Virus record (IMG/VR): IMGVR_UViG_2531839528_000015
DNA length: 32,429 nt
From: a virus
Taxonomy: Duplodnaviria > Heunggongvirae > Uroviricota > Caudoviricetes
Direction: 5' to 3' (one strand)
Position numbers and translations under genes: made by a program. Of this stretch, positions 1-11,893 are shown one piece after another (position 1 is the stretch's first letter; the number at the start of each line of letters is the position of its first letter). The notes under the pieces are model-generated. The model ran no database searches, was not told the DNA's origin, and saw only the letters and a list, made by a program, of their open reading frames with translations.

Positions 1-452
1 AACACCAGCAAACAGATAAAAAAGGGCCAGCCAATTGGCCAGCCCTTCTTAACAGGATGTCGCTTAAGCGAAATCTTAGTTAAGACGCTCCCAATAAAAC
101 CACATAAAAAACATATAATTATAATAAAAACAATTAGTTAATTTAATTTTTAATGCAGTGAATTGCAATATTCTGCAACCTCCGCCGCCACTTTGCCGCC
201 ACTTAAAGCTTTATACCACACAGACTTTAGTATACCCGAGTGAAACGCTAACACATGAGGTAGTTGGAAAATTTCCGTATATGTTGTAATATTGATACGC
301 ATTATATGATTTTTACCTGATATAATGTAATTATTAGCTTCAAAATTATTTTTGCACGAATCAGGTATTACCAAGTAGTTGTCAGTTTTTAAAAACCCAA
401 CATCCTAAAATTAGCATTGTTTTTTAACCACAAAACATCCACGGAGAAGAAC

Positions 453-1262
453 GTGTCAAAAAAGGATACAATCCAGATTATCGATATCAGGATGCAGAGA
501 CCAATCATAGCAAGAATAGAAGAAGAAAATTTAAATTTGACATTGCAAATGTCAGATAAAGCCACATTATCTGGTGCGACAGTTAGTTTTTTCACCCCAA
601 ATAACGTTTCTATATTCTTATCCTCAGCAAAAAAAGAGCTCTCAAAATCCAATTCTATATATAAAAGTCTTTTTGGAAAAATACACAAAACCAAACATAA
701 AAACTTTAAAATTTCCGACAAAGACCTGCCGAGACTCTATAATTACTTTGAATCAATTCAGACGGCCATTATTTCTATGTATACTGCAATTGAGTCTTTT
801 GCAAATATATGCATACCACATGATTATGTTTATGAAAAAAACAATGCCAAGGGAATCAAAGAATCCTATAGCAAAGAGCTAATTGAGCGATATATACCAA
901 CAAGTGAAAAAATAGATAAAATCCTACCGTCTATTTTAAATTGTGATTCGCCTAAAGGTTCAAAACTATGGCAAGATTTTAAAAGCCTTGAGTCACTTAG
1001 AAATGACATAATTCACCCCAAGACAACAAAGAAAAACACAGAAACAAAAGAAGACTCATCTTTTTTATGCATTTTACTATCAGATGACTTTATAAAAAAA
1101 GTTTCCTGTGGATTTGATTTGGTATCTTATTTTTGCAAACAAGACACTACTCATAGTCTTTTCCCAATGGGTTTCGGTGAAATTGAACTTAAACCTGTCC
1201 CAATTAAAGCCGGTGACTTTGAAAAAGTTGATGATCATGATGAAATAGAATTACCATCATAA
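453..1262 (+). CDS. Hypothetical AT-rich accessory protein next to the integrase 3' end, with a possible HEPN-like Rx4H motif
   Basis: ORF-track frame 417..1262 opens with TTG. An in-frame GTG at 453 is preceded by GGAG at 443-446, so 453 is the preferred start; the first in-frame ATG is at 492. Translation is Lys/Asn/Ile-rich, unlike the backbone. Motif R-N-D-I-I-H at residues 195-200 (nt 999-1016). Confidence 0.5.
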   Translation: MSKKDTIQIIDIRMQRPIIARIEEENLNLTLQMSDKATLSGATVSFFTPNNVSIFLSSAKKELSKSNSIYKSLFGKIHKTKHKNFKISDKDLPRLYNYFESIQTAIISMYTAIESFANICIPHDYVYEKNNAKGIKESYSKELIERYIPTSEKIDKILPSILNCDSPKGSKLWQDFKSLESLRNDIIHPKTTKKNTETKEDSSFLCILLSDDFIKKVSCGFDLVSYFCKQDTTHSLFPMGFGEIELKPVPIKAGDFEKVDDHDEIELPS

Positions 1263-1378: not shown

Positions 1379-2419
1379 TTAATCTTTCCATTTAAAACCA
1401 TTACATAATGTTAAAGGATTAAATGTTACAGCCTCCTCAAGATGATCCGGGGAGAAATGTGCATACTTCATAGTTTCACGAATATTCGCATGACCGAGTA
1501 TACGTTGCAGCACAAGAATATTCCCGCCATTCATCATAAAATGAGCGCCGAAGGTATGACGCAGAACGTGTGTCTTTTGCCCTTCCGTCAGTTCGATATC
1601 CGTTAGTTTGAGCATCTTTTTAAACTCCTGATAGCAAGGCTTAAACATCTTTCCCTGCCTTTCAGATAATTCGTCATACAACCATTTTGGGATCGGAACG
1701 GTTCGATTCTTTTTCCCTTTCGTTTTGGTGAAGGTCAGTTTATGTGGCGAGAGCTGGGGACGTGTCAACCTCTCAGCCTCACCCCATCTAGCACCTGTTG
1801 CAAGACAAATCTTAACAATCATGGTGAGGTCTTCTTTTCCGTATTGCTCGCATGCCTGAAACAATTTCGGAATTTGAGACAAAGTGAGCCAAGACATTTC
1901 TTTCTCGGCTTCCTTGAAAACACGGACTCCATCAAGTGGATTTGGTAAGCTCCACTCCCCTAGCCTTTTGAGCTCATTAAATACAGCCTCAAGATATTGT
2001 TGCTCACGATTGACAGTTATCGGTTTAGCAATCCATTTTGCCGGGTCTTTATGATAGCCATTATCTATCTCCCCCCGAAGTCGGCGGTCACGGTAATGAG
2101 CCCAATCTTTAGCAGTAAGGCGGGATGCAATAGGGTCACCAAGTCCATTACACACGATTTGAAGTTTAGCTAACCGCGACTTACTGGCGACCAGTGCCTG
2201 TCCGTGTAAATTATGCCAAAGCTGGATAATCTCACTTAAGCGTCGGCGGTCTTCTTTCTTGCCGAGCCACGGCTTATCCTCACTCTCACTTTTCGTAAAT
2301 GCTTCGAATGCCTCGGCCTCACCTTTGGTATTGAATTGCCGACGTATACGCCGCCCTTCTCGACCATTTGGATAGAGCTCGCATAACCATTTGCCATTTT
2401 TTTGCTTACTTACAGTCAT
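1379..2419 (-). CDS. int: Tyrosine integrase (P2/186 family)
   Basis: 346-aa ORF with ATG start at 2417-2419. C-terminal tyrosine-recombinase motifs HVLRHTFGAHF and LGHANIRETMKYAHF. Lies at the prophage end, transcribed the same way as the repressor. Confidence 0.9.
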   Translation of the reverse strand: MTVSKQKNGKWLCELYPNGREGRRIRRQFNTKGEAEAFEAFTKSESEDKPWLGKKEDRRRLSEIIQLWHNLHGQALVASKSRLAKLQIVCNGLGDPIASRLTAKDWAHYRDRRLRGEIDNGYHKDPAKWIAKPITVNREQQYLEAVFNELKRLGEWSLPNPLDGVRVFKEAEKEMSWLTLSQIPKLFQACEQYGKEDLTMIVKICLATGARWGEAERLTRPQLSPHKLTFTKTKGKKNRTVPIPKWLYDELSERQGKMFKPCYQEFKKMLKLTDIELTEGQKTHVLRHTFGAHFMMNGGNILVLQRILGHANIRETMKYAHFSPDHLEEAVTFNPLTLCNGFKWKD

Positions 2420-2441
2420 AATGTCACCGAGGCAACTCTAA

Positions 2442-2780
2442 TTATTCCCAAAGTGCTGTTGCAGCATCCATTACAGGATCCAAAGGAATTTTTACGCCTG
2501 CATACTCCGGGCTATCTTTCCAAACAGTATCAATATTGCTCCCCTCAAGCTTTCCAGACTTTACTCCATCAATCGCAAAACCATTTAATGGGTATCGGTC
2601 ATCTGTTGCTTTGTCGTACACAAAGGCATATTTACCGTTGACACAAGACACCGTAGCTTTTTCAAAAGTTAACGGCCAATCCTCACCAAACTTAGCGCCA
2701 TCTAAATCCTGTGTTTTTTCAGCGGCTGAGGCTCCAAAAGAAAGGGTAAGAAGCAGAGCTAAAAAGAGTTTACATTTCAT
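2442..2780 (-). CDS. Small secreted or periplasmic protein (moron), possibly DUF2511/YebY-like
   Basis: The track ORF 2442..2852 overlaps the repressor gene. The internal Met at 2778-2780 begins a typical signal peptide MKCKLFLALLLTLSFGASAA, and a mature domain of about 90 aa follows. The YebY resemblance is from memory only. Confidence 0.55.
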   Translation of the reverse strand: MKCKLFLALLLTLSFGASAAEKTQDLDGAKFGEDWPLTFEKATVSCVNGKYAFVYDKATDDRYPLNGFAIDGVKSGKLEGSNIDTVWKDSPEYAGVKIPLDPVMDAATALWE

Positions 2781-2788
2781 AATGTCCC

Positions 2789-3649
2789 TTACACGTGTTT
2801 TTCCAATGTGAAAACTACAGCCCCGGCAGGAGTAATGTCTGTAATGTTGCATTCAAACTCAGCAGACTTATTTGACAACCTGACTTTTCCACCGGGCAAG
2901 CGAATTACATCAAAAACATCAAGAGCGCCGTCGATATCAATTAACCAGCGACCATTACTTATATTCGAAGCAGAACAGTCGACAAGCCAAGAGGCAGCTA
3001 CACCGTCAACAAAAATCAATTCCCCTGAGTTAGAAGGAATCATTGAGGGGTCAGGATGCCACGTTCCTGCATCCTTAAGCTCACCAGATTCAAGACGAGA
3101 TTTTTTAATAGAAAAACCAGATGTGACATCTTCCCTGTTAGCTCGCATTTGCCCCTTGCCTGTTGCTAACCATTCCAGTGACGTATCGGTATCAAGAGCG
3201 CATGTAACAACAACATCACCAGGGAAAAAATCTCGCCTTACCCATGTGCTAATTGTGCCAGAGGAAATGCCGAGCAAATCACCGAGCTCCTTTTGCATGG
3301 TAAAGCCATACGCATCAAGAATCCTACGCAAAACGGTTTTACCACCATTCGTCATAATCTCGTCATAAAGCTCTTTGCCTTTTAACTTGCAACTGGCTCG
3401 CTCGTGATTTGCATTTGCAAGTTCTCCATTTACAAGCCAATTGATATCAGCTCCCGTGTCAAGACAACACCTAACTATGACATTGCCAGGTATTGCATCA
3501 CGCTGAACCCAGCCGCTAACGCTGTGTTTAGCGATACCTAGCAGGTCAGCCAAATCCTTTTGCATCTTGACCCCATAGGCTGACATTAAGCGTTCCAATA
3601 CGCCGTTCGTTGCACTAACACGCCACTGAACATCAAGCTCAGAACTCAT
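2789..3649 (-). CDS. cI: Phage 186-type CI repressor with tandemly duplicated N-terminal HTH domain
   Basis: 286 aa. Two internally repeated segments align: GVLERLMSAYGVKMQKDLADLLGIAKHSVSGWVQRDAIPGNVIVRCCLDTGADINWLVNGE and TVLRRILDAYGFTMQKELGDLLGISSGTISTWVRRDFFPGDVVVTCALDTDTSLEWLATGK. They are followed by a CI C-terminal-like domain. No S24 peptidase Ser/Lys motifs recognised. Divergent from the apl-like gene. Confidence 0.8.
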   Translation of the reverse strand: MSSELDVQWRVSATNGVLERLMSAYGVKMQKDLADLLGIAKHSVSGWVQRDAIPGNVIVRCCLDTGADINWLVNGELANANHERASCKLKGKELYDEIMTNGGKTVLRRILDAYGFTMQKELGDLLGISSGTISTWVRRDFFPGDVVVTCALDTDTSLEWLATGKGQMRANREDVTSGFSIKKSRLESGELKDAGTWHPDPSMIPSNSGELIFVDGVAASWLVDCSASNISNGRWLIDIDGALDVFDVIRLPGGKVRLSNKSAEFECNITDITPAGAVVFTLEKHV

Positions 3650-3678: not shown

Positions 3679-3707
3679 TTTACAGAAAACTTTTTACGAT
3701 CTATAGT
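3679..3707 (+). promoter_or_regulatory. Candidate lytic promoter (pR-like) in the cI/apl switch region
   Basis: -35 TTTACA (3679-3684), 17-bp spacer, -10 TATAGT (3702-3707). AGGAG at 3756-3760 sits 10 nt before the ATG at 3771. Confidence 0.4.
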
Positions 3708-3770
3708 GGCATTCATCGACCAAGATGCACACCACTGCACTACATTTCAAACAACAGGAGATAATGCGAT

Positions 3771-4142
3771 ATGTCAGATGCAAAATCAATCTCGACGCAC
3801 GACTCGCAAAACTCACAAAATCAAACTGTGCTGCTAGATCCAACACAGTTTGATGCCATCGTTACCGCCATGCTGCCAGCTCTACAGACAATGATTCGCT
3901 CCGCTATGTCAGACACGATGACTGTGAAAGACTTCGCCGCTACTCGCGGTGTTAGCGAGCGTCTGGTCTGGCAATGGCTCGATGAGGGAGTCCTTCTCAA
4001 AGCTCCGACCAAAGACTTTTCCAACAAAGAAGAAGCTGCTAAACGAAGCCGAACCCTCGTAAACGTAAAAGCATGGCGCGATAAGCTGACTCAACAAGCG
4101 ATTGATTGTCGCTACATCGACCAGCGCACCGCTCTTAACTGA
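3771..4142 (+). CDS. Apl/Cox-like excisionase and switch regulator (HTH)
   Basis: First gene divergent from the repressor. Translation contains MTVKDFAATRGVSERLVWQWLDEGVLL, an HTH typical of phage Cox/Apl/AlpA-like proteins. The Ser/Gln-rich N-terminal extension makes the true start uncertain. Confidence 0.6.
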   Translation: MSDAKSISTHDSQNSQNQTVLLDPTQFDAIVTAMLPALQTMIRSAMSDTMTVKDFAATRGVSERLVWQWLDEGVLLKAPTKDFSNKEEAAKRSRTLVNVKAWRDKLTQQAIDCRYIDQRTALN

Positions 4143-5711: not shown

Positions 5712-7934
5712 TTGGCTGTTCAATTCGCTTATCCGTGGAACGTCCCACGGTCGGCAATCTCCAGCCCATACCTTACTTATGAGCAACAGCATCGCCGCGA
5801 CCGTATGTTCGCGGCTTTGCTGCATGCAAAAAAGGTGCTTTCTCTCCAGCCCGACTGCGTGCGGTTAGATGTTTATCGCACTGCTGCGGTGCTGGAACAA
5901 AATCAGGGTAGTCAACGAGCCAATGCATTTTTAATCAGCTTCTGCAAAAAGGCATTGCCGCGTCTTGAACTGGTCGCAAAAAAATACGAATGCGCTGGTA
6001 TCAACAGCAAGGTATCAACCGCTGTTTTTGGAAGTCATTTTGATACTCAGCAAATGCAATATCTGTCGTCACGCATGGTTAATATGGTCGCCCGATATAA
6101 CCGTCTCCCGGACATGTCGCGCGCTGATGTTGACCTGTTGGCCGCTGATATTGCTAATTTCATTCGTGGTGAACTTGCCAACATTAATGACCACGGATTC
6201 GGCGAGCTTAAAACGCTGTACACCTGGTATATTCGTGCTGGCTTTATTTCCCTCCAATTCAACGTTATCCCACCACATTGGGAGCGGGTTGAAAAAAAAT
6301 ATGTCGGTGCGGATGAAATCGCACCGGCTATCGCCAAAATGTTTAACGATGGGTGGTGGCGCGGTCGTTTGCGCCGTGTAGCAGCTACGTGGCGCGAACA
6401 CCTGCAAATTGCAGTCGGCAACGTCAGTAAGAAAAAAAACACTTACGCGAGTAAAAACTGCGTGACTGACTGGCGTGAACAAAAGCGCCGCACTCGTGAA
6501 TTTCTCAAAGGTCTGGATCTCGAAGACGAAGACGGCAACCGTATCAGCCTAATTGAAAAATATGATGGCTCAGTTGCTAACCCTGCGATTCGCCGCTGTG
6601 AGCTCATGACCCGCATTCGTGGGTTTGAAAACATCTGTAATGAGCTCGGTTATGTCGGTGAGTTTTACACTCTAACCGCGCCGTCAAAATATCACGCCAC
6701 GACTAAAGCCGGTTACCGTAACAGCAAATGGAGCGGTGCCAGCCCGGCTGACACGCAAAACTATCTAACCGGTATCTGGGCGCGTATCCGTGCCAAACTA
6801 CATCGGGAAGATGTCCGTATTTTCGGTATTCGTGTCGCCGAGCCCCATCACGACGGCACTCCACACTGGCACATGCTGATGTTCATGCTGCCGGAAGATG
6901 TTGAATATGTTCGCTCCATCGTCCGTAAATACGCATGGAAAGAAGACCGCCACGAACTGAAAAGCGATAAATCCCAAAAAGCACGTTTCCACGCGGAGTC
7001 CATTGACCCGGAGAAAGGCAGCGCAACCGGCTATGTTGCTAAATACATTTCAAAAAATATCGACGGTTATGCTCTCGATGGTGAAACCGATGATGAAAGC
7101 GGTGAGCTGCTGAAAGAGACAGCCCCCGCCGTTTCAGCATGGGCTGCGCGCTGGCACATCCGTCAGTTTCAGTTTATTGGTGGTGCGCCGGTGACGGTTT
7201 ACCGTGAGTTGCGTCGCCTCGCTGATACCGAAACCGCGCACGGTCTGAGCGTTGAGTTTGCCGCCGTCCATGATGCCGCCGACGCTGGTGACTGGGCTGG
7301 TTATGTTAATGCTCAGGGTGGGCCGTTTGTCCGTCGCGATGATTTACAGGTGCGCACACTGTATGAACCGCGTACCGAGCTTAATCAGTACGGTGAGGAA
7401 ACGGTATGTATTAAGGGGGTCTACGATTCCTCCATAGGTGCAGGAAGCCCGATTTTAACCCGGCTCACTCAGTGGAAGATTGTTCCGAAGCGTGCTGTTG
7501 ATTTGGCCGTTGACCTTCAGGACGGCAAAGCCGTCCCTCGGAGTTCTGTCAATAACTGTACGGGAAGCGAAAGCGATCCACCGATACTGGATTTAACAAA
7601 ACCACTGAGTCGGCGTGAAAGACGAGAATTGACCAACCGACTCAGGAAGCAAAAGCCAGCAGCACGGCGAAAATTCATCCACGGAACGGATGAGCAAAAC
7701 GCAGCTATAGCTAAAACTATCGATGAGATACATCTGACAACCGGCATTAATATCAGCCGGGGCGAAGCCCTGCACCTGATGGCCGGTGGTAAAAGTTGTT
7801 TTGATGGTAAATGGCTACGCGGAACGGCCAAAGGAGAAATATTTTCCGCAGCACCATCGCATGAGGCTAAAGCTCGGAAAATCCTTAATCGTGTTGCGGC
7901 GATGGCTGAAGCATCAAAACCAATACATGAGTAA
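5712..7934 (+). CDS. A: Replication initiation endonuclease (P2 gpA-like, rolling circle)
   Basis: 740 aa. HWHMLMF motif and the tyrosine pair in YVAKYISKNIDGY. TTG start at 5712 with GGGGG at 5701-5705, tightly coupled to the upstream stop. Confidence 0.88.
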   Translation: MAVQFAYPWNVPRSAISSPYLTYEQQHRRDRMFAALLHAKKVLSLQPDCVRLDVYRTAAVLEQNQGSQRANAFLISFCKKALPRLELVAKKYECAGINSKVSTAVFGSHFDTQQMQYLSSRMVNMVARYNRLPDMSRADVDLLAADIANFIRGELANINDHGFGELKTLYTWYIRAGFISLQFNVIPPHWERVEKKYVGADEIAPAIAKMFNDGWWRGRLRRVAATWREHLQIAVGNVSKKKNTYASKNCVTDWREQKRRTREFLKGLDLEDEDGNRISLIEKYDGSVANPAIRRCELMTRIRGFENICNELGYVGEFYTLTAPSKYHATTKAGYRNSKWSGASPADTQNYLTGIWARIRAKLHREDVRIFGIRVAEPHHDGTPHWHMLMFMLPEDVEYVRSIVRKYAWKEDRHELKSDKSQKARFHAESIDPEKGSATGYVAKYISKNIDGYALDGETDDESGELLKETAPAVSAWAARWHIRQFQFIGGAPVTVYRELRRLADTETAHGLSVEFAAVHDAADAGDWAGYVNAQGGPFVRRDDLQVRTLYEPRTELNQYGEETVCIKGVYDSSIGAGSPILTRLTQWKIVPKRAVDLAVDLQDGKAVPRSSVNNCTGSESDPPILDLTKPLSRRERRELTNRLRKQKPAARRKFIHGTDEQNAAIAKTIDEIHLTTGINISRGEALHLMAGGKSCFDGKWLRGTAKGEIFSAAPSHEAKARKILNRVAAMAEASKPIHE

Positions 7935-8233: not shown

Positions 8234-8467
8234 ATGAGAATCAATATCACGTTGGATAAAGAGCAAAAAATTAGTCAGGCAACATTGGATGCACTTGAGG
8301 CTGAACTGTACCGCAATCTTCAACCTATTTACCCAAAGACTGCTATCCGAATTCGCAAGGGCTCCGCTAATGGCGTTGAACTAAGCGGTTTGAAACTGGA
8401 CGAAGATAAAAAACGAGTAATGGAAATCATGCAGCAGGTATGGGAGGACGATAGCTGGCTGCATTAA
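8234..8467 (+). CDS. DinI-family protein
   Basis: MRINITLDKEQKISQATLDALEAELYRNLQPIYP...EDKKRVMEIMQQVWEDDSW follows the E. coli DinI pattern (MRIEVTI...DALAGEL...EDKQRISEILQETWE). Confidence 0.8.
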   Translation: MRINITLDKEQKISQATLDALEAELYRNLQPIYPKTAIRIRKGSANGVELSGLKLDEDKKRVMEIMQQVWEDDSWLH

Positions 8468-8874: not shown

Positions 8875-8939
8875 AACGCCGCCGGAGCTGAAACTCGCTT
8901 TCAGGTCTGGCGGGGTTGAACAACGAGCTACGCGAGGCG
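8875..8939 (+). repeat. 65-bp stem-loop repeat, copy 2
   Basis: aacgccgccggagctgaaactcgctttcaggtctggcggggttgaacaacgagctacgcgaggcg. Differs from copy 1 at about 8 of 65 positions and begins 3 nt after the stop of the 69-aa ORF. Confidence 0.7.
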
Positions 8940-9005
8940 TTAGCCGGTCATAGCGTCGCAAATACTTCAACCGTCTGCTGGTTAAATAATTCGAGGTTTT
9001 TGGAC

Positions 9006-9200
9006 ATGCAAAATCCCCTTTCATCGAAAAATGACCCGTTTGCCGATTGGGCAAAGAATCTGACTTTAATGGCTTTAAATAACGACCTGAGCTCTCGCGA
9101 GGTGGAAAGCTACACCGCAAAAATGGTCGGGCAGGCCGGTAAAGATGAGCTATCAGTCGTTATCAAACACCTGTTAAATCACATCAGAATGCGCAAATAA
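9006..9200 (+). CDS. Hypothetical small protein
   Basis: Track ORF 8916..9200 starts inside repeat 2. The internal ATG at 9006 with GAGG upstream is more plausible (MQNPLSSKNDPFADWAKNL...). Confidence 0.4.
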   Translation: MQNPLSSKNDPFADWAKNLTLMALNNDLSSREVESYTAKMVGQAGKDELSVVIKHLLNHIRMRK

Positions 9201-9764: not shown

Positions 9765-10769
9765 CTAATTTACATGTATGTAGAGTTCACCGTCGCCAGA
9801 CCAATCGGGACACTCTAAAACAAGCCCAAACTGCTTGAATATTTCATCAATGATTATTGTTATCTCCCGAAAATCACCAAAACCTGTAATGTGCTGGTCA
9901 TTAAACTTCCCATAAAGATTCTGAAAAGCAATGCCTAATTCTGATAATTGATATCTTATCTTTGAGTTGGATAGTGTAAGGGATAGCTTTGGATCGTATT
10001 CTTTAATATTGATGTTTAGAGAATGGACATAACCCATCGCATAAGCATAAGAGTTGATGATTAGCCTGATACGTTTTTTTACTTCAAGATACATGTCATT
10101 CAGAGAAATATTACCGTACTTATAACCCCAGATGAGTTTTTCAATCTCGTCAGATACTTCATTTACAACAGTGTCAAGATTCTCTAAAAATAAATCGACA
10201 GTTTCTTGAGGGGCAGACCCCGAAGACATGTAATTAGCGAGATATTCAGACCATGCACGCGTGGCTGAGATAAGAAGCGCGCTACCATACTCGTTGACTG
10301 TAAAGTTTTGGGCTAAGCATGTTAGTAAGTTTTTTTCATGTACGTGCACTAATTCATGGTGAATGCGATGGATGACTGCGAGGTATCCTTCTTCTTTCAG
10401 TTTTAAGAAGCTACCATCATTGAAAAGCTCAACAAAAAAATCAATCGATAGCACAAGGGTATATTCTTCATATAGCCCATCATTGCCAATTTTTGTTACT
10501 AACTGCCCGACGGCTGCGCCCTGTTTGCTATTGGTAAATGAACTAGGGGATTTGTGTTGGTAAGAGGATGTTACCTTTTGAAGAGCTTCACTGAAGTTAT
10601 AGGAAACAATCACGCATTTTAATTTGGAGATATCAAGATTGAGATTCTTTGTTAAAGCTCGGATAGCTTCTAGTGTGAAATTACCGATATTATTTGCTTC
10701 TTGCTCAGTAGCGAAACCTTCGAGGGTTATTTTAAAATCAGTTTCCAAAATATTAATCTCCGCGCCCAT
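9765..10769 (-). CDS. Hypothetical AT-rich 334-aa protein with an HExxH motif, between cos and Q (candidate defence or exclusion cargo)
   Basis: ATG at 10767-10769. Asn/Ile/Leu/Glu-rich translation. HRIHHELVHVHE at residues 134-145 (nt 10344-10358). No Walker A motif and no transmembrane segment seen. Confidence 0.7.
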   Translation of the reverse strand: MGAEINILETDFKITLEGFATEQEANNIGNFTLEAIRALTKNLNLDISKLKCVIVSYNFSEALQKVTSSYQHKSPSSFTNSKQGAAVGQLVTKIGNDGLYEEYTLVLSIDFFVELFNDGSFLKLKEEGYLAVIHRIHHELVHVHEKNLLTCLAQNFTVNEYGSALLISATRAWSEYLANYMSSGSAPQETVDLFLENLDTVVNEVSDEIEKLIWGYKYGNISLNDMYLEVKKRIRLIINSYAYAMGYVHSLNINIKEYDPKLSLTLSNSKIRYQLSELGIAFQNLYGKFNDQHITGFGDFREITIIIDEIFKQFGLVLECPDWSGDGELYIHVN

Positions 10770-10846: not shown

Positions 10847-11893
10847 TTATTCTGGGTTGTCGAGGGTGTACTCTTTGAATCTGATGACCTCCATGCCGAG
10901 CCAGTCATTTACCTCCCTGAACCTGTCCTGTAGCGGCGACAGCTCGTTGCGCACAAATACCTTTGCCACCTTCTCAACATCACCGAGTGAACCGATATTC
11001 TCGGGCTTGCCGCCCATGAGCTGGAACGGTACGCGGTGCGCGTCCATCAGATCGGCGGCACTGGCCTTCTTGATGTTGAAAAAGTCATCCTTTGTGGCGA
11101 CCTCGCTCAGTGGCACGATTTTGATGCCGTCCGGTTTTCCGCCGGGAGCGTAGAAAAACAGGTTCTTAAAGTTGCCGAGCCCTTTTGAGTTGCGCATCGC
11201 CTCGCGCAGCGATTCGACGTCGGTCGCGCTCTGCGCCGGGTCAGTCACATACATGATGTAGCCTGCGTGCGCGCCGTTCTGATAATACTTGCGGCGGAAC
11301 AGCGTCGCGGATTCATTCAGCCAAGCGGAATTAAGCGCGCTGAGATATTCCGGCAGACCGTAAATCTCCTGATTAATGTCGGGCTCCAGCAGGTGAAACA
11401 CGGTATCAGGCGCGAACTCGTGCGGCTGGGTGAAGTTTTCCACAAACCAGAAAATCGAATCGTCGACTCCGCGTCGGGTGTATTTGGCTGGCGAGGCCAG
11501 CAGTTTGATTAACTGGCCGGTGACGCTGTGGCGCTGCTCAAGAAAGGCGTTACCGAACACCAGATAATCGAGCGCAAAGCGGCTGAAATCCTGACGGGAT
11601 AACAACGGGTGCGGAATGTAGGTGCTCGCGAGCACGTTACGCTTAACATAAATTGGCGAGCTGTGATGCACGGCAGAGCGCAGGCTCTTTGCCAGCCCTG
11701 AGAAGCTGACCGGCGGCTCGTACCATTTGCCGTTACTGATGCACTCGACGTAATCCAGAATGTCGCGCTTATCGAGTACCGGCACCGGCTCGCCGAAGGT
11801 GAACGCTGTCGTTTTTGGCGGTGCGCTGGCGGTCAGTTGTTGTGGTTTGCTGGCCTTTTGTGCGTTGGCTTTACGGGATTTTTGTTTACCCAT
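10847..11893 (-). CDS. Q: Portal protein (P2 gpQ-like)
   Basis: 348 aa, the size and position of P2 Q, adjacent to and co-oriented with the large terminase. Confidence 0.9.
   Translation of the reverse strand: MGKQKSRKANAQKASKPQQLTASAPPKTTAFTFGEPVPVLDKRDILDYVECISNGKWYEPPVSFSGLAKSLRSAVHHSSPIYVKRNVLASTYIPHPLLSRQDFSRFALDYLVFGNAFLEQRHSVTGQLIKLLASPAKYTRRGVDDSIFWFVENFTQPHEFAPDTVFHLLEPDINQEIYGLPEYLSALNSAWLNESATLFRRKYYQNGAHAGYIMYVTDPAQSATDVESLREAMRNSKGLGNFKNLFFYAPGGKPDGIKIVPLSEVATKDDFFNIKKASAADLMDAHRVPFQLMGGKPENIGSLGDVEKVAKVFVRNELSPLQDRFREVNDWLGMEVIRFKEYTLDNPE

Follow-up and report, generated by a model that had tools for sequence, protein, structure and literature searches.

A small gene between the repressor and the integrase

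The window analysed here is the whole of a 32,429-nucleotide stretch of viral DNA. On its minus strand, an ORF at 2442..2780, running from an ATG at 2780 to a TAA stop at 2442-2444, encodes 112 aa and is flanked by the genes for a CI immunity repressor and a tyrosine integrase, which are the first and the last gene, respectively, of the leftward (lysogenic) operon. CI contains two tandem Phage_CI_repr HTH domains and a Phage_CI_C domain and is 97.9% identical to PSP3 CI; the integrase shares about 90-95% amino-acid identity with those of the PSP3 group. The locus comprises the following features:

1379..2419, minus strand: tyrosine integrase, 346 aa, ATG at 2419 (Pfam Int_N and Phage_integrase)
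2420..2441, minus strand: 22-nt spacer between the ORF stop and the int ATG, holding the int ribosome-binding site GGTGA
2442..2780, minus strand: DUF2511/YebY-family gene, homologue of PSP3 gp28, 112 aa (coordinates include the TAA stop)
2448..2450, minus strand: codon 111, TGG (Trp), equivalent to YebY Cys113; the C111W change removes the disulfide partner of Cys46
2643..2645, minus strand: codon of Cys46, first half of the family disulfide, equivalent to YebY Cys48 by alignment
2721..2780, minus strand: Sec signal peptide, codons 1-20 (MKCKLFLALLLTLSFGASAA), by feature analysis
2781..2791, minus strand: cI/ORF junction, with the cI TAA at 2789-2791, a Shine-Dalgarno-like AAGGGA at 2785-2790 and an 8-nt spacer to the ATG at 2780
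2789..3649, minus strand: PSP3-type CI immunity repressor, 286 aa (Pfam PF07022 in two stretches, and PF16452)
3679..3707, plus strand: candidate lytic promoter pR, TTTACA-17-TATAGT, 10/12 matches
3761..3789, minus strand: candidate lysogenic promoter pL, TTGATT-17-CATTAT, a weak consensus match (8/12) from a looser scan

The start codon at 2780 is used by all homologues and stands 4 nt after AAGGGA. A 136-aa version from the mechanical ORF list, beginning at an in-frame ATG at 2852, was rejected because this upstream ATG falls within cI; homologues that lack a 2852-type ATG begin at the equivalent of position 2780. An ORF of 91 aa on the opposite strand (2536..2811) is spurious. A sequence-only reading of the window had placed a protein of about 112 aa between int and the repressor, directly downstream of cI and on the same strand, and this arrangement is what we find: the ORF follows the cI stop by 8 nt, and the spacers are conserved in divergent relatives. 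Given the conserved 8-nt and 22-nt spacers and the position directly after cI on the same strand, co-transcription with cI and int is the natural reading. No terminator-like site was found on the minus strand between cI and int. At the standard threshold of the promoter scan no pL was detected on the minus strand, and the candidate listed above comes from the looser scan; it faces the candidate pR, which lies upstream of the gene in the apl/cox position (3771..4142). In phage 186, pR and pL are arranged face-to-face, and the annotation of phage K139 places them in the same way.

The export signal, which the sequence-only reading had also called, is borne out by its n-, h- and c-region features, which we scored directly instead of using SignalP. 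The n-region (MKCK) carries a charge of +2, the h-region (LFLALLLTLSF) has a mean Kyte-Doolittle value of 2.6, and the c-region (GASA/AE) obeys the -3/-1 rule. Feature analysis of the ORF product revealed neither a lipobox nor a further hydrophobic segment. A lipoprotein was rejected, since the lipobox is absent and the sole N-terminal cysteine (residue 3) sits in the n-region. Cleavage by signal peptidase I is predicted after Ala19 or Ala20 and would leave a mature protein of ~92 aa with a net charge of -7. The signal peptide aligns with that of E. coli YebY, and all phage clades keep one, with varying sequence. YebY itself has been shown to be periplasmic by fractionation, and signal peptides are present in most members of the family (PMC8689200). 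DUF2511 is mentioned in two published proteomics papers; the peptide in one is clearly of the host YebY type, and that in the other is not assignable. We consider it likely that the ORF product is made in the lysogen, exported by Sec and present in the periplasm as a soluble, acidic protein of ~92 aa.

Family membership and a variable cargo slot

The suggested resemblance to YebY and DUF2511 proved right in three kinds of search. The Pfam profile DUF2511 (PF10709) matches with 59.5 bits (E 4.5e-16) where the gathering score is 21, in an alignment that spans positions 5-86 of the 87 in the profile, phmmer against PDB sequences retrieves the crystal structure of YebY (7N0J) at E 3e-6, and the best PDB match to an AF2 model of moderate quality (mean pLDDT 66; residues 67-83 poorly predicted) is again YebY 7N0J (E 1.6e-5, TM 0.62-0.71), followed by MlbQ (2MVO and 6QFP). 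The model, at this quality, shows the alpha/beta fold of YebY and MlbQ, a four-stranded sheet with flanking helices. PHROG 2950 matches over 112/112 positions (E 1.3e-51), and the RefSeq entry WP_001394631.1, annotated as 'DUF2511 domain-containing protein', is exactly the same protein. No NCBIfam model matches it, nor does any family among the PADLOC-DB 2.0 defence models at E <= 0.01. The core residues of the 165-sequence family alignment are W35 (165 sequences), Y63 (162), N66 (160) and P91 (153); the window protein has all four, the equivalents of Trp37 and of the corresponding Tyr, Asn and Pro of YebY, together with the export signal typical of the DUF2511/YebY-MlbQ family, as judged by its features. 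A chance ORF or misannotation, for which small size alone would speak, is refuted by these strong family matches, by conservation and a fixed position, and by purifying selection (within-clade dN/dS 0.09-0.23). The ORF is almost certainly the gp28-type gene of a PSP3/186-type, P2-like (Peduoviridae, Eganvirus-like) E. coli prophage integrated beside yfiB, and it belongs to the DUF2511/YebY/MlbQ fold family. Judging from its sequence, the window protein is clearly a family member by descent, despite its atypical allele.

The nearest described relative is gp28 of PSP3 (orf28, NP_958085.1), which is the same gene: it encodes 112 aa and likewise lies between int and cI, with the same spacers; identity is 92% for the full-length protein and 95.7% for its mature part. 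Orthologues occur in SEN1, Midge, SW9/SI22, vB_EcoM-613R3 and RCIP0057 (PHROG 2950), and the window allele differs from these PSP3-type proteins at position 111 (Trp for Cys) and at position 3 (Cys for Arg or His). E. coli YebY, encoded by the third gene of the yobA-yebZ-yebY copper-uptake operon, has a homologous DUF2511 fold, a similar length, a Sec signal peptide and a periplasmic location; the equivalents of Trp35, Tyr63, Asn66 and Pro91 are conserved in it, and it shares a V-x-S-G-K loop with the window protein. The two are, however, only ~30% identical, the mature YebY has a charge of -1 rather than -7, and the window allele lacks a disulfide of the Cys48-Cys113 type. A YebY orthologue would be expected next to copD/yebZ and copC/yobA, whereas the gene in the window lies in a prophage lysogeny operon with cI and int as neighbours. 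Nor is YebY among its closest relatives: with 56.9 bits, it comes about 55th when scored against the phage-clade profile, and many non-enterobacterial members score higher. Recent capture of the host yebY gene was rejected on the basis of this low rank.

Two further proteins serve as points of comparison. MlbQ (2MVO, 6QFP), involved in NAI-107 self-resistance in Microbispora, belongs to the same fold family and is a small extracytoplasmic protein that protects its producer by binding the harmful molecule outside the membrane (PMC8689200). Unlike the phage protein, it is a lipoprotein with a long unstructured linker, encoded in an ABC-transporter immunity operon of a Gram-positive organism. Glo of K139, a P2-family phage of Vibrio cholerae, is a Sec-exported, soluble periplasmic protein of 137 aa with cysteines near both ends of its mature part, encoded between cI and int in a cI-orf2-glo-int block annotated as the PL lysogenic operon. 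According to its GenBank note and PMC3952083, Glo is a soluble periplasmic protein involved in phage exclusion. The window protein is likewise small, predicted to be soluble and periplasmic, and encoded by a P2-family phage within its cI-int lysogenic operon, which makes Glo the closest analogue by position and architecture; this is analogy and not family membership. BLASTP between Glo and the ORF protein gave no alignment at E <= 100, and the two are assigned to different groups (PHROG 7270 and PHROG 2950, respectively).

Among 78 informative relatives, found through cI, the gene occupies the same position in 59, other cargo is present in 15, and 4 have nothing there. The ORF is therefore not absent or disrupted in most related prophages, which the sequence-only reading had named as grounds against it. 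An intact ORF of 112-113 aa at the same spacing is found in 57 independently sampled prophages; of the remaining two copies, one is interrupted by a contig end and the other (L074) lacks a normal start. The spacer between cI and the ORF measures 8-9 nt in 56 of the 59 loci carrying the gene, a count that takes in loci where the script chose an upstream in-frame ATG, and the spacer between the ORF and int measures 22-24 nt in 50 related loci. The same spacing is held across clades in which CI is merely 55-65% identical. The order int, gp28, cI recurs in PSP3, SEN1, Midge, SW9, 613R3 and RCIP0057, and the gene is present in 66 of 5426 complete E. coli genomes; in the matches listed, from 30 of these 66 genomes, the integrase and the DUF2511 gene are found together, along with CI in those matches that extend to it. 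With regard to other phage groups, such as actinophages, a tblastn search of 50,697 phage records with two distant DUF2511 members retrieved the same ten PSP3-type records and no others. Roughly three quarters of the sampled PSP3/186-type prophages thus keep a small exported protein right behind the repressor.

The genes that substitute for it encode another secreted protein of 130-137 aa, membrane-anchored WYL proteins or a BRCT-domain protein, and nine of the 59 loci have extra genes after the gp28-type gene, for example bPH-SHOCT or an FRG candidate defence gene; the FRG protein matches the PADLOC candidate system PDC-S15 at E 7.8e-55. No homology was found between Glo and the alternative secreted cargo of 134 aa. 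The cI-int interval of PSP3-type phages is a variable cargo slot of the lysogenic operon, positioned like glo in K139, and its occupants (PDC-S15-like FRG, bPH-SHOCT, WYL, BRCT and secreted proteins) mark it as an accessory or defence slot. Rousset et al., 2022 (PMC9122126) describe K139-like phages with a defence hotspot in the cI-int interval. For P2-like prophages, PMC13586616 describes minor hotspots in the integrase-att and integrase-primase intervals; the main described P2 hotspot lies between gpA and gpQ, unlike the slot considered here. The relevant passages of PMC9122126 and PMC13586616 do not name DUF2511 as a defence gene, and the term 'DUF2511' is absent from the latter.

The gene, its family and its context are already known: a 2021 paper had drawn attention to YebY homologues flanked by a recombinase and a phage CI repressor, and our finding confirms an annotated gene in that context. 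What is added here is the C111W allele and the frameshift lineage linked to it, and no new kind of element.

The Trp111 allele and a frameshifted lineage

Cysteine occupies position 46 in 164 of the 165 family sequences and position 111 in 157 of them, as well as in all 46 other distinct phage alleles. The window protein retains Cys46 and has Trp at residue 111, so that the cysteine pair of the DUF2511 family, described as strictly conserved, is incomplete; among the phage alleles sampled, Trp111 is restricted to the window allele and its 98% twin. The TGG allele is carried by 19 of 5426 complete E. coli genomes, seven of which also have a 10-nt frameshifting deletion that takes out the invariant R-Y-P-L-N motif. 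RefSeq labels the deletion-bearing gene a frameshifted pseudogene, and the int and cI proteins on either side do not differ from those of strain S3, which has the intact allele. The 58 other copies sampled, among them L074 without its normal start codon, showed no frameshift.

These observations suggest that the window copy is probably unstable or inactive through C111W and that its lineage is decaying further. On balance we also lean towards a more specific account, in which C111W blocks the disulfide, the protein is degraded and the gene drifts towards a pseudogene with cI and int intact. The near-invariance of Cys111 argues for it, as does the fate of YebY, whose expression is abolished when Cys48 or Cys113 is changed to Ala or Ser (PMC8689200); the deletion, found in TGG genomes with unchanged flanking proteins, points the same way, as does the lack of frameshifts in the 58 other copies sampled. 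Yet in 12 of the 19 genomes and in two metagenomic viral contigs the W111 allele is otherwise intact, and the bulky Trp might partly stand in for the disulfide via hydrophobic packing. In addition, the substitution and the deletion represent one event each and the genomes are partly clonal (CH423, CH425, CH458), which gives these counts small statistical weight. Loss of the window copy is compatible with either of the two functional hypotheses for intact alleles, lysogen protection and copper modulation.

Possible roles of the intact protein

The gene is kept in most PSP3/186-type prophages and in 66 of 5426 E. coli genomes, and therefore probably does something for the lysogen. We tentatively favour an accessory protein that may protect the lysogen by binding in the periplasm, by analogy with K139 Glo (periplasmic exclusion) and MlbQ (immunity by binding the lantibiotic NAI-107), which could serve as models for such protection. 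The gp28-type gene, as the middle one of a leftward cI-gp28-int operon, is probably read from the lysogenic promoter; its product is probably exported by Sec and then cut by signal peptidase I after Ala19 or Ala20, and in normal alleles a disulfide between Cys46 and Cys111 probably staples the protein. The target might be a component of the entry apparatus of a superinfecting phage or an envelope-directed toxin or peptide. The company that the gene keeps in its slot is consistent with such a function. The analogy to Glo rests on position and architecture, because there is no sequence similarity between the two proteins, and the purifying selection and strong conservation of the core are easier to reconcile with a conserved ligand than with an arms race, which speaks against protection. 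So does the fact that experimental data on a Gram-negative member of the family concern only copper import (PMC11923076).

In an alternative reading, the protein would act like host YebY: by docking on the inner-membrane copper importer YebZ (CopD), or by competing with YobA (CopC), it would reduce the uptake of copper by the lysogen. We regard this as unlikely, and favour lysogen protection over it. The window protein is a true homologue of YebY, at ~30% identity and with the same size, signal peptide and fold, and both the phage clade and enterobacterial YebY contain a V-x-S-G-K loop where most of the family have a gap; copper accumulation that depends on YebZ is lowered by YebY (PMC11923076), rare natural YebZ-YebY fusions exist (PMC8689200), and yebY mutants are streptomycin-tolerant (bioRxiv 10.64898/2026.08.18.745456). 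On the other hand, the phage clade is far from host YebY, which comes about 55th against its profile, neither His nor Met is conserved in the phage alleles, and the slot is otherwise occupied by genes for defence-like or envelope proteins and not by metal-homeostasis genes. Moreover, about half of the DUF2511 genes lie outside AZY contexts, and YebY itself binds copper weakly and solely when reduced (PMC8689200). Direct binding of copper by the phage protein was rejected: the mature part has no His and a single Met, and outside the Cys pair the phage alleles conserve neither residue. Modulation of copper import would alter copper toxicity, NDH-2 metallation, mar-dependent antibiotic resistance or aminoglycoside tolerance, and in one variant the protein could take over the host YebZ copper importer and thereby change mar-dependent antibiotic resistance in lysogens. 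A role in the phage's own cycle, in lysis timing, peptidoglycan passage or virion release, appears very improbable. A conserved phage gene with an envelope location would suit it, and nothing more does; the gene sits in the leftward repressor-integrase operon and not in the early lytic or late operons, it is replaced or absent in 19 of the 78 relatives that keep cI and int, and phage 186 is absent from the phage records matched by DUF2511 queries.

Identity, expression, lysogen protection and a damaged copy in the window together make up our best overall explanation, which we hold with somewhat less than even confidence. A broader extension, that phage DUF2511 proteins could form a widespread, unrecognised class of soluble periplasmic protective proteins of 186/PSP3-type prophages, sequestering their targets like MlbQ, strikes us as doubtful. 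If true, it would mean that the DUF2511 fold has, for the first time, a clear biological role in Gram-negative bacteria. Should the protein block superinfection or alter copper-linked resistance, this would matter for the host range of phages used in therapy and for the phenotype of clinical E. coli lysogens. The phage copy, coming from a simple operon, also offers an easy handle on the role of the YebY/DUF2511 family. The natural Cys-to-Trp and frameshift alleles are ready controls for such work, and, if the extension to a protective class is true, their lineage would provide a ready-made loss-of-function control.

A probably Sec-exported DUF2511 protein downstream of cI

The sequence-only reading had placed a secreted protein of about 112 aa directly downstream of the repressor gene cI and on the same strand. 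The gene identified here agrees with this placement: it comprises 112 codons plus a TAA stop, and lies 8 nt from the cI stop codon and 22 nt from the ATG of int.

2789..3649, minus strand: cI, repressor gene (stop codon at 2789-2791)
2442..2780, minus strand: DUF2511 ORF
1379..2419, minus strand: int, tyrosine integrase gene (ATG at 2419)
3789 to 3761, minus strand: candidate pL (weak match)
3679-3707, plus strand: candidate pR (good match), facing candidate pL

A 136-aa version starting at an in-frame ATG at 2852, as given by a mechanical ORF list, was rejected. Given that this ATG sits inside cI and that homologues begin at the equivalent of 2780, the ORF begins with the ATG at 2780, 4 nt after AAGGGA. 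No terminator-like hairpin was found on the minus strand between cI, the ORF and int. In phage 186, the leftward operon is read from pL. The annotation of phage K139 likewise puts cI and int in a leftward PL operon and, by analogy with both phages, the DUF2511 ORF would be transcribed together with cI and int from pL.

The proposed Sec signal peptide was judged by scored sequence features rather than by SignalP prediction, and the three-part N-terminus is present: an n-region (MKCK), an h-region (LFLALLLTLSF, mean hydropathy 2.6) and a c-region (GASA|AE) that agrees with the -3/-1 rule. The protein contains neither a lipobox nor a hydrophobic segment after the signal peptide, and its mature part of ~92 aa has a net charge of -7. 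YebY of E. coli is experimentally periplasmic (PMC8689200), and by likeness to YebY the phage protein is probably exported by Sec and soluble in the periplasm.

The resemblance to YebY/DUF2511 suggested by the sequence-only reading proved right. Pfam DUF2511 (PF10709) is matched with 59.5 bits (cut-off 21), the sequence of the YebY crystal structure 7N0J with E 3e-6, and PHROG 2950, labelled 'unknown function', over all 112 positions (E 1.3e-51). An AlphaFold model built with 16 sequences as input is of moderate quality (mean pLDDT 66), and the only significant PDB matches of this predicted fold are YebY (TM 0.62-0.71) and then MlbQ. By descent, the protein is a member of the DUF2511 family and an orthologue of PSP3 gp28 (orf28), with 92% identity over the full length and 95.7% in the mature part. 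The surrounding genes, i.e. those for a PSP3-type CI repressor, integrase, 186-type CII, Fil, DUF5347, DUF2732, a TraR/DksA-like protein and the gpA replication endonuclease, identify the prophage as a 186/PSP3-type P2-like element. The same place is occupied in SEN1, Midge (annotated 'putative periplasmic protein'), SW9/SI22, vB_EcoM-613R3 and Klebsiella phage RCIP0057. Several E. coli chromosomes, e.g. that of strain S3, contain a prophage identical over the ORF region; in S3 this prophage adjoins dgcN-yfiB. The locus occurs in 66 of 5426 complete E. coli genomes; among the 30 matches listed, the matched stretch covers the integrase and DUF2511 genes, plus CI if it extends that far.

The finding itself is already known, given that RefSeq annotates the protein (WP_001394631.1, 'DUF2511 domain-containing protein') and that Hadley et al. 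(J Biol Chem 2021/2022, PMC8689200) noted, in several Enterobacteriaceae, YebY homologues between a XerD-type recombinase and a phage CI repressor HTH-domain protein. What is added here is the confirmed observation and family, counts of slot contents and a probably damaged allele.

A cargo slot between cI and int

To avoid circularity, 80 IMG/VR loci were gathered with CI, not the ORF, as query, and the sequence from the cI stop to the int start was inspected in each; 78 were informative.

Table. Content of the cI-int interval in the informative loci
DUF2511 gene alone: 49 loci
DUF2511 gene with further cargo after or before it: 9 loci
DUF2511 gene, cut by contig end: 1 locus
Other cargo without DUF2511 gene: 15 loci
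Empty interval (26-76 nt): 4 loci

The spacers are near-invariant (8-9 nt after cI, 22-24 nt before int), even where CI is just 55-65% identical to the window CI. The DUF2511 proteins fall into several clades with 31-100% identity to the window protein, and these clades are reassorted with respect to the flanking genes: in one locus (L019), CI is 87% and Int 93% identical, whereas the DUF2511 protein reaches only 48%. Within the clade, dN/dS values against the window of 0.09-0.23 indicate purifying selection. Counts, spacers and selection together show that the gene is neither missing nor broken in most relatives; its absence or disruption there would have spoken against the original proposal.

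The cI-int interval is a cargo slot. This reading is supported by two studies, which describe a cI-int defence hotspot in K139-like P2-related Vibrio phages (Rousset et al., 2022; PMC9122126) and, in a 2026 census, minor P2 hotspots at integrase-att and integrase-primase (PMC13586616). In some loci, the DUF2511 gene is replaced by another secreted protein (130-137 aa, two cysteines, PHROG 3807, no Pfam match), by 187-201-aa proteins that combine membrane helices at the N-terminus with a WYL domain, or by a BRCT-domain protein together with a 279-aa protein. Its companions include a bPH_3/SHOCT protein and an FRG-domain protein matching the PADLOC candidate defence system PDC-S15 (E 7.8e-55). 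The Sec-exported PHROG 3807 family follows cI in L027, L036, L046, L048 and L053, and may be a functional alternative to the DUF2511 protein; in L036 it precedes the DUF2511 gene instead of replacing it. The WYL proteins, downstream of cI in L041-L047, L064, L076-L079 and L084, carry two or three N-terminal membrane helices and WYL at the C-terminus, and in this repressor-adjacent position look like candidate abortive-infection or exclusion factors.

Possible functions and the probably damaged window allele

In K139, the leftward PL 'lysogenic operon' is annotated as cI-orf2(BRCT)-glo-int, with Glo as a periplasmic protein for phage exclusion. Glo has 137 aa, a signal peptide and a cysteine near each end of the mature protein. 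PMC3952083, with reference to Nesper et al. (1999), counts Glo as an unusual, soluble exclusion protein of the periplasm. Glo and the DUF2511 protein share operon position and architecture but no sequence similarity, making Glo an analogue rather than a homologue.

We tentatively favour, as a possible reading, a protective role in which the DUF2511 protein would bind a component of a superinfecting phage or an envelope-directed toxin in the periplasm, providing exclusion or immunity. All other identifiable slot occupants are defence-like or envelope proteins, and Glo, the only protein characterised from this position of the operon, is an exclusion factor of the periplasm. In addition, MlbQ, the sole family member with a defined protective function, binds a lantibiotic outside the membrane (PMC8689200); the mode of action may resemble that of Glo or MlbQ by analogy. 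As the main alternative, the protein could act like YebY, damping copper import by YebZ (CopD), for which the only experimental data on a Gram-negative family member exist (PMC11923076), and a loop common to YebY and the phage clade adds some support. We consider this somewhat less likely: host YebY ranks only ~55th against the phage-clade profile, and no His or Met is conserved among the phage alleles. Judged by operon context and nearest relatives, the protein is not a YebY orthologue. The same distance from YebY and lack of conserved His/Met favour the protective role. The broader reading, in which phage DUF2511 proteins in general protect from within the periplasm or commandeer the copper importer of the host, is doubtful.

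The Cys48-Cys113 disulfide of YebY has been called strictly conserved, and changing either cysteine to Ala or Ser abolished expression (PMC8689200). The window protein retains Cys46 but ends in ...ATALWE, its codon at 2448-2450 being TGG rather than the Cys codon of relatives (C111W), and thus lacks the disulfide pair of the family. Cysteine is present there in 46/46 other distinct phage alleles from our loci and in 157 of the 165 sequences of an alignment to which a full HMM search contributed 148 family representatives; Trp occurs only in the window and its 98% twin P0001. Given that the TGG allele is found in 19 complete E. coli genomes and two viral contigs, it is real and not a sequencing error. 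Seven of these 19 genomes carry an additional 10-nt deletion, GATACCCATT, which eliminates the invariant R-Y-P-L-N motif and causes a frameshift; in RefSeq, this copy is marked as a frameshifted pseudogene, while its int/cI neighbours encode the same proteins as in strain S3, which has the intact allele. No frameshift was seen among 58 other sampled copies. The deletion lineage points to relaxed constraint after C111W, and we lean towards the window copy being impaired, an assessment drawn from two events only, with several of the genomes being clonal.

In L074, a more distant relative whose copy is among these 58, the DUF2511 gene (about 3814-4134) seems to lack a normal start (TTG TAA for ATG AAA), and the longest ATG-initiated ORF has 98 aa and no signal peptide; possibly, the gene was inactivated here a second time, independently.

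Other features of the prophage

An AT-rich (32% GC) ORF of 281 aa (417..1262, plus strand; RefSeq counterpart WP_001394629.1, 269 aa of 281) separates host yfiB from the 3' end of int. Related prophages at the same yfiB site (SF-468, ARL09/232) lack this ORF, and in them int directly follows yfiB. The ORF matches PHROG 17113 (E 1e-180, unknown function) but no Pfam family. PADLOC yields a weak hit to RTasHEPN (E 1.3e-4), and the protein sequence includes a HEPN-type R-x4-H motif, LRNDIIHP. The ORF is possibly a HEPN-like defence gene located in the integrase-att hotspot that PMC13586616 describes for P2-like prophages.

DNA similarity to PSP3-type phages ends at about 1412, inside int, excluding its 3' end (1379..1412) and the region leftwards. 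Int has 346 aa, compared to 349 aa in relatives, and aligns to these only as far as residues 341-343; its C-terminus is remodelled by an attL crossover or by insertion of the AT-rich ORF. Synonymous divergence of int from other alleles is saturated (dS > 1.2), whereas against some of the phages carrying them, adjacent cI shows a dS of only ~0.04. The prophage is mosaic, with a breakpoint close to where the DUF2511 gene and int adjoin.

CI (286 aa) contains two tandem Phage_CI_repr HTH copies of visibly similar sequence (~residues 13-75 and 106-169), with Phage_CI_C after them. With these copies, PSP3-type CI is far longer than the 192-aa CI of 186. The latter has a single N-terminal HTH domain (PMC3448106), and for PSP3 CI, Nilsson et al. 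(2011) remarked only on a 'longer C-terminal domain'. According to these authors, the PSP3 protein at the apl/cox position is a singleton and bears no relation to other Cox/Apl proteins; the window gene at this position (3771..4142, plus strand, 123 aa) has no Pfam match.

Three ORFs occupy the classical P2 defence hotspot, which extends here from gpA (5712..7934) to the portal gene (10847..11893):

8234..8467, plus strand: DinI-family gene
8916..9200, plus strand: PHROG 2454 ORF
9765..10769, minus strand: 334-aa ORF, AT-rich (37-43% GC), PHROG 11743, unknown function

For the last of these, neither Pfam nor PADLOC gave a match; it is a candidate for an uncharacterised defence gene.
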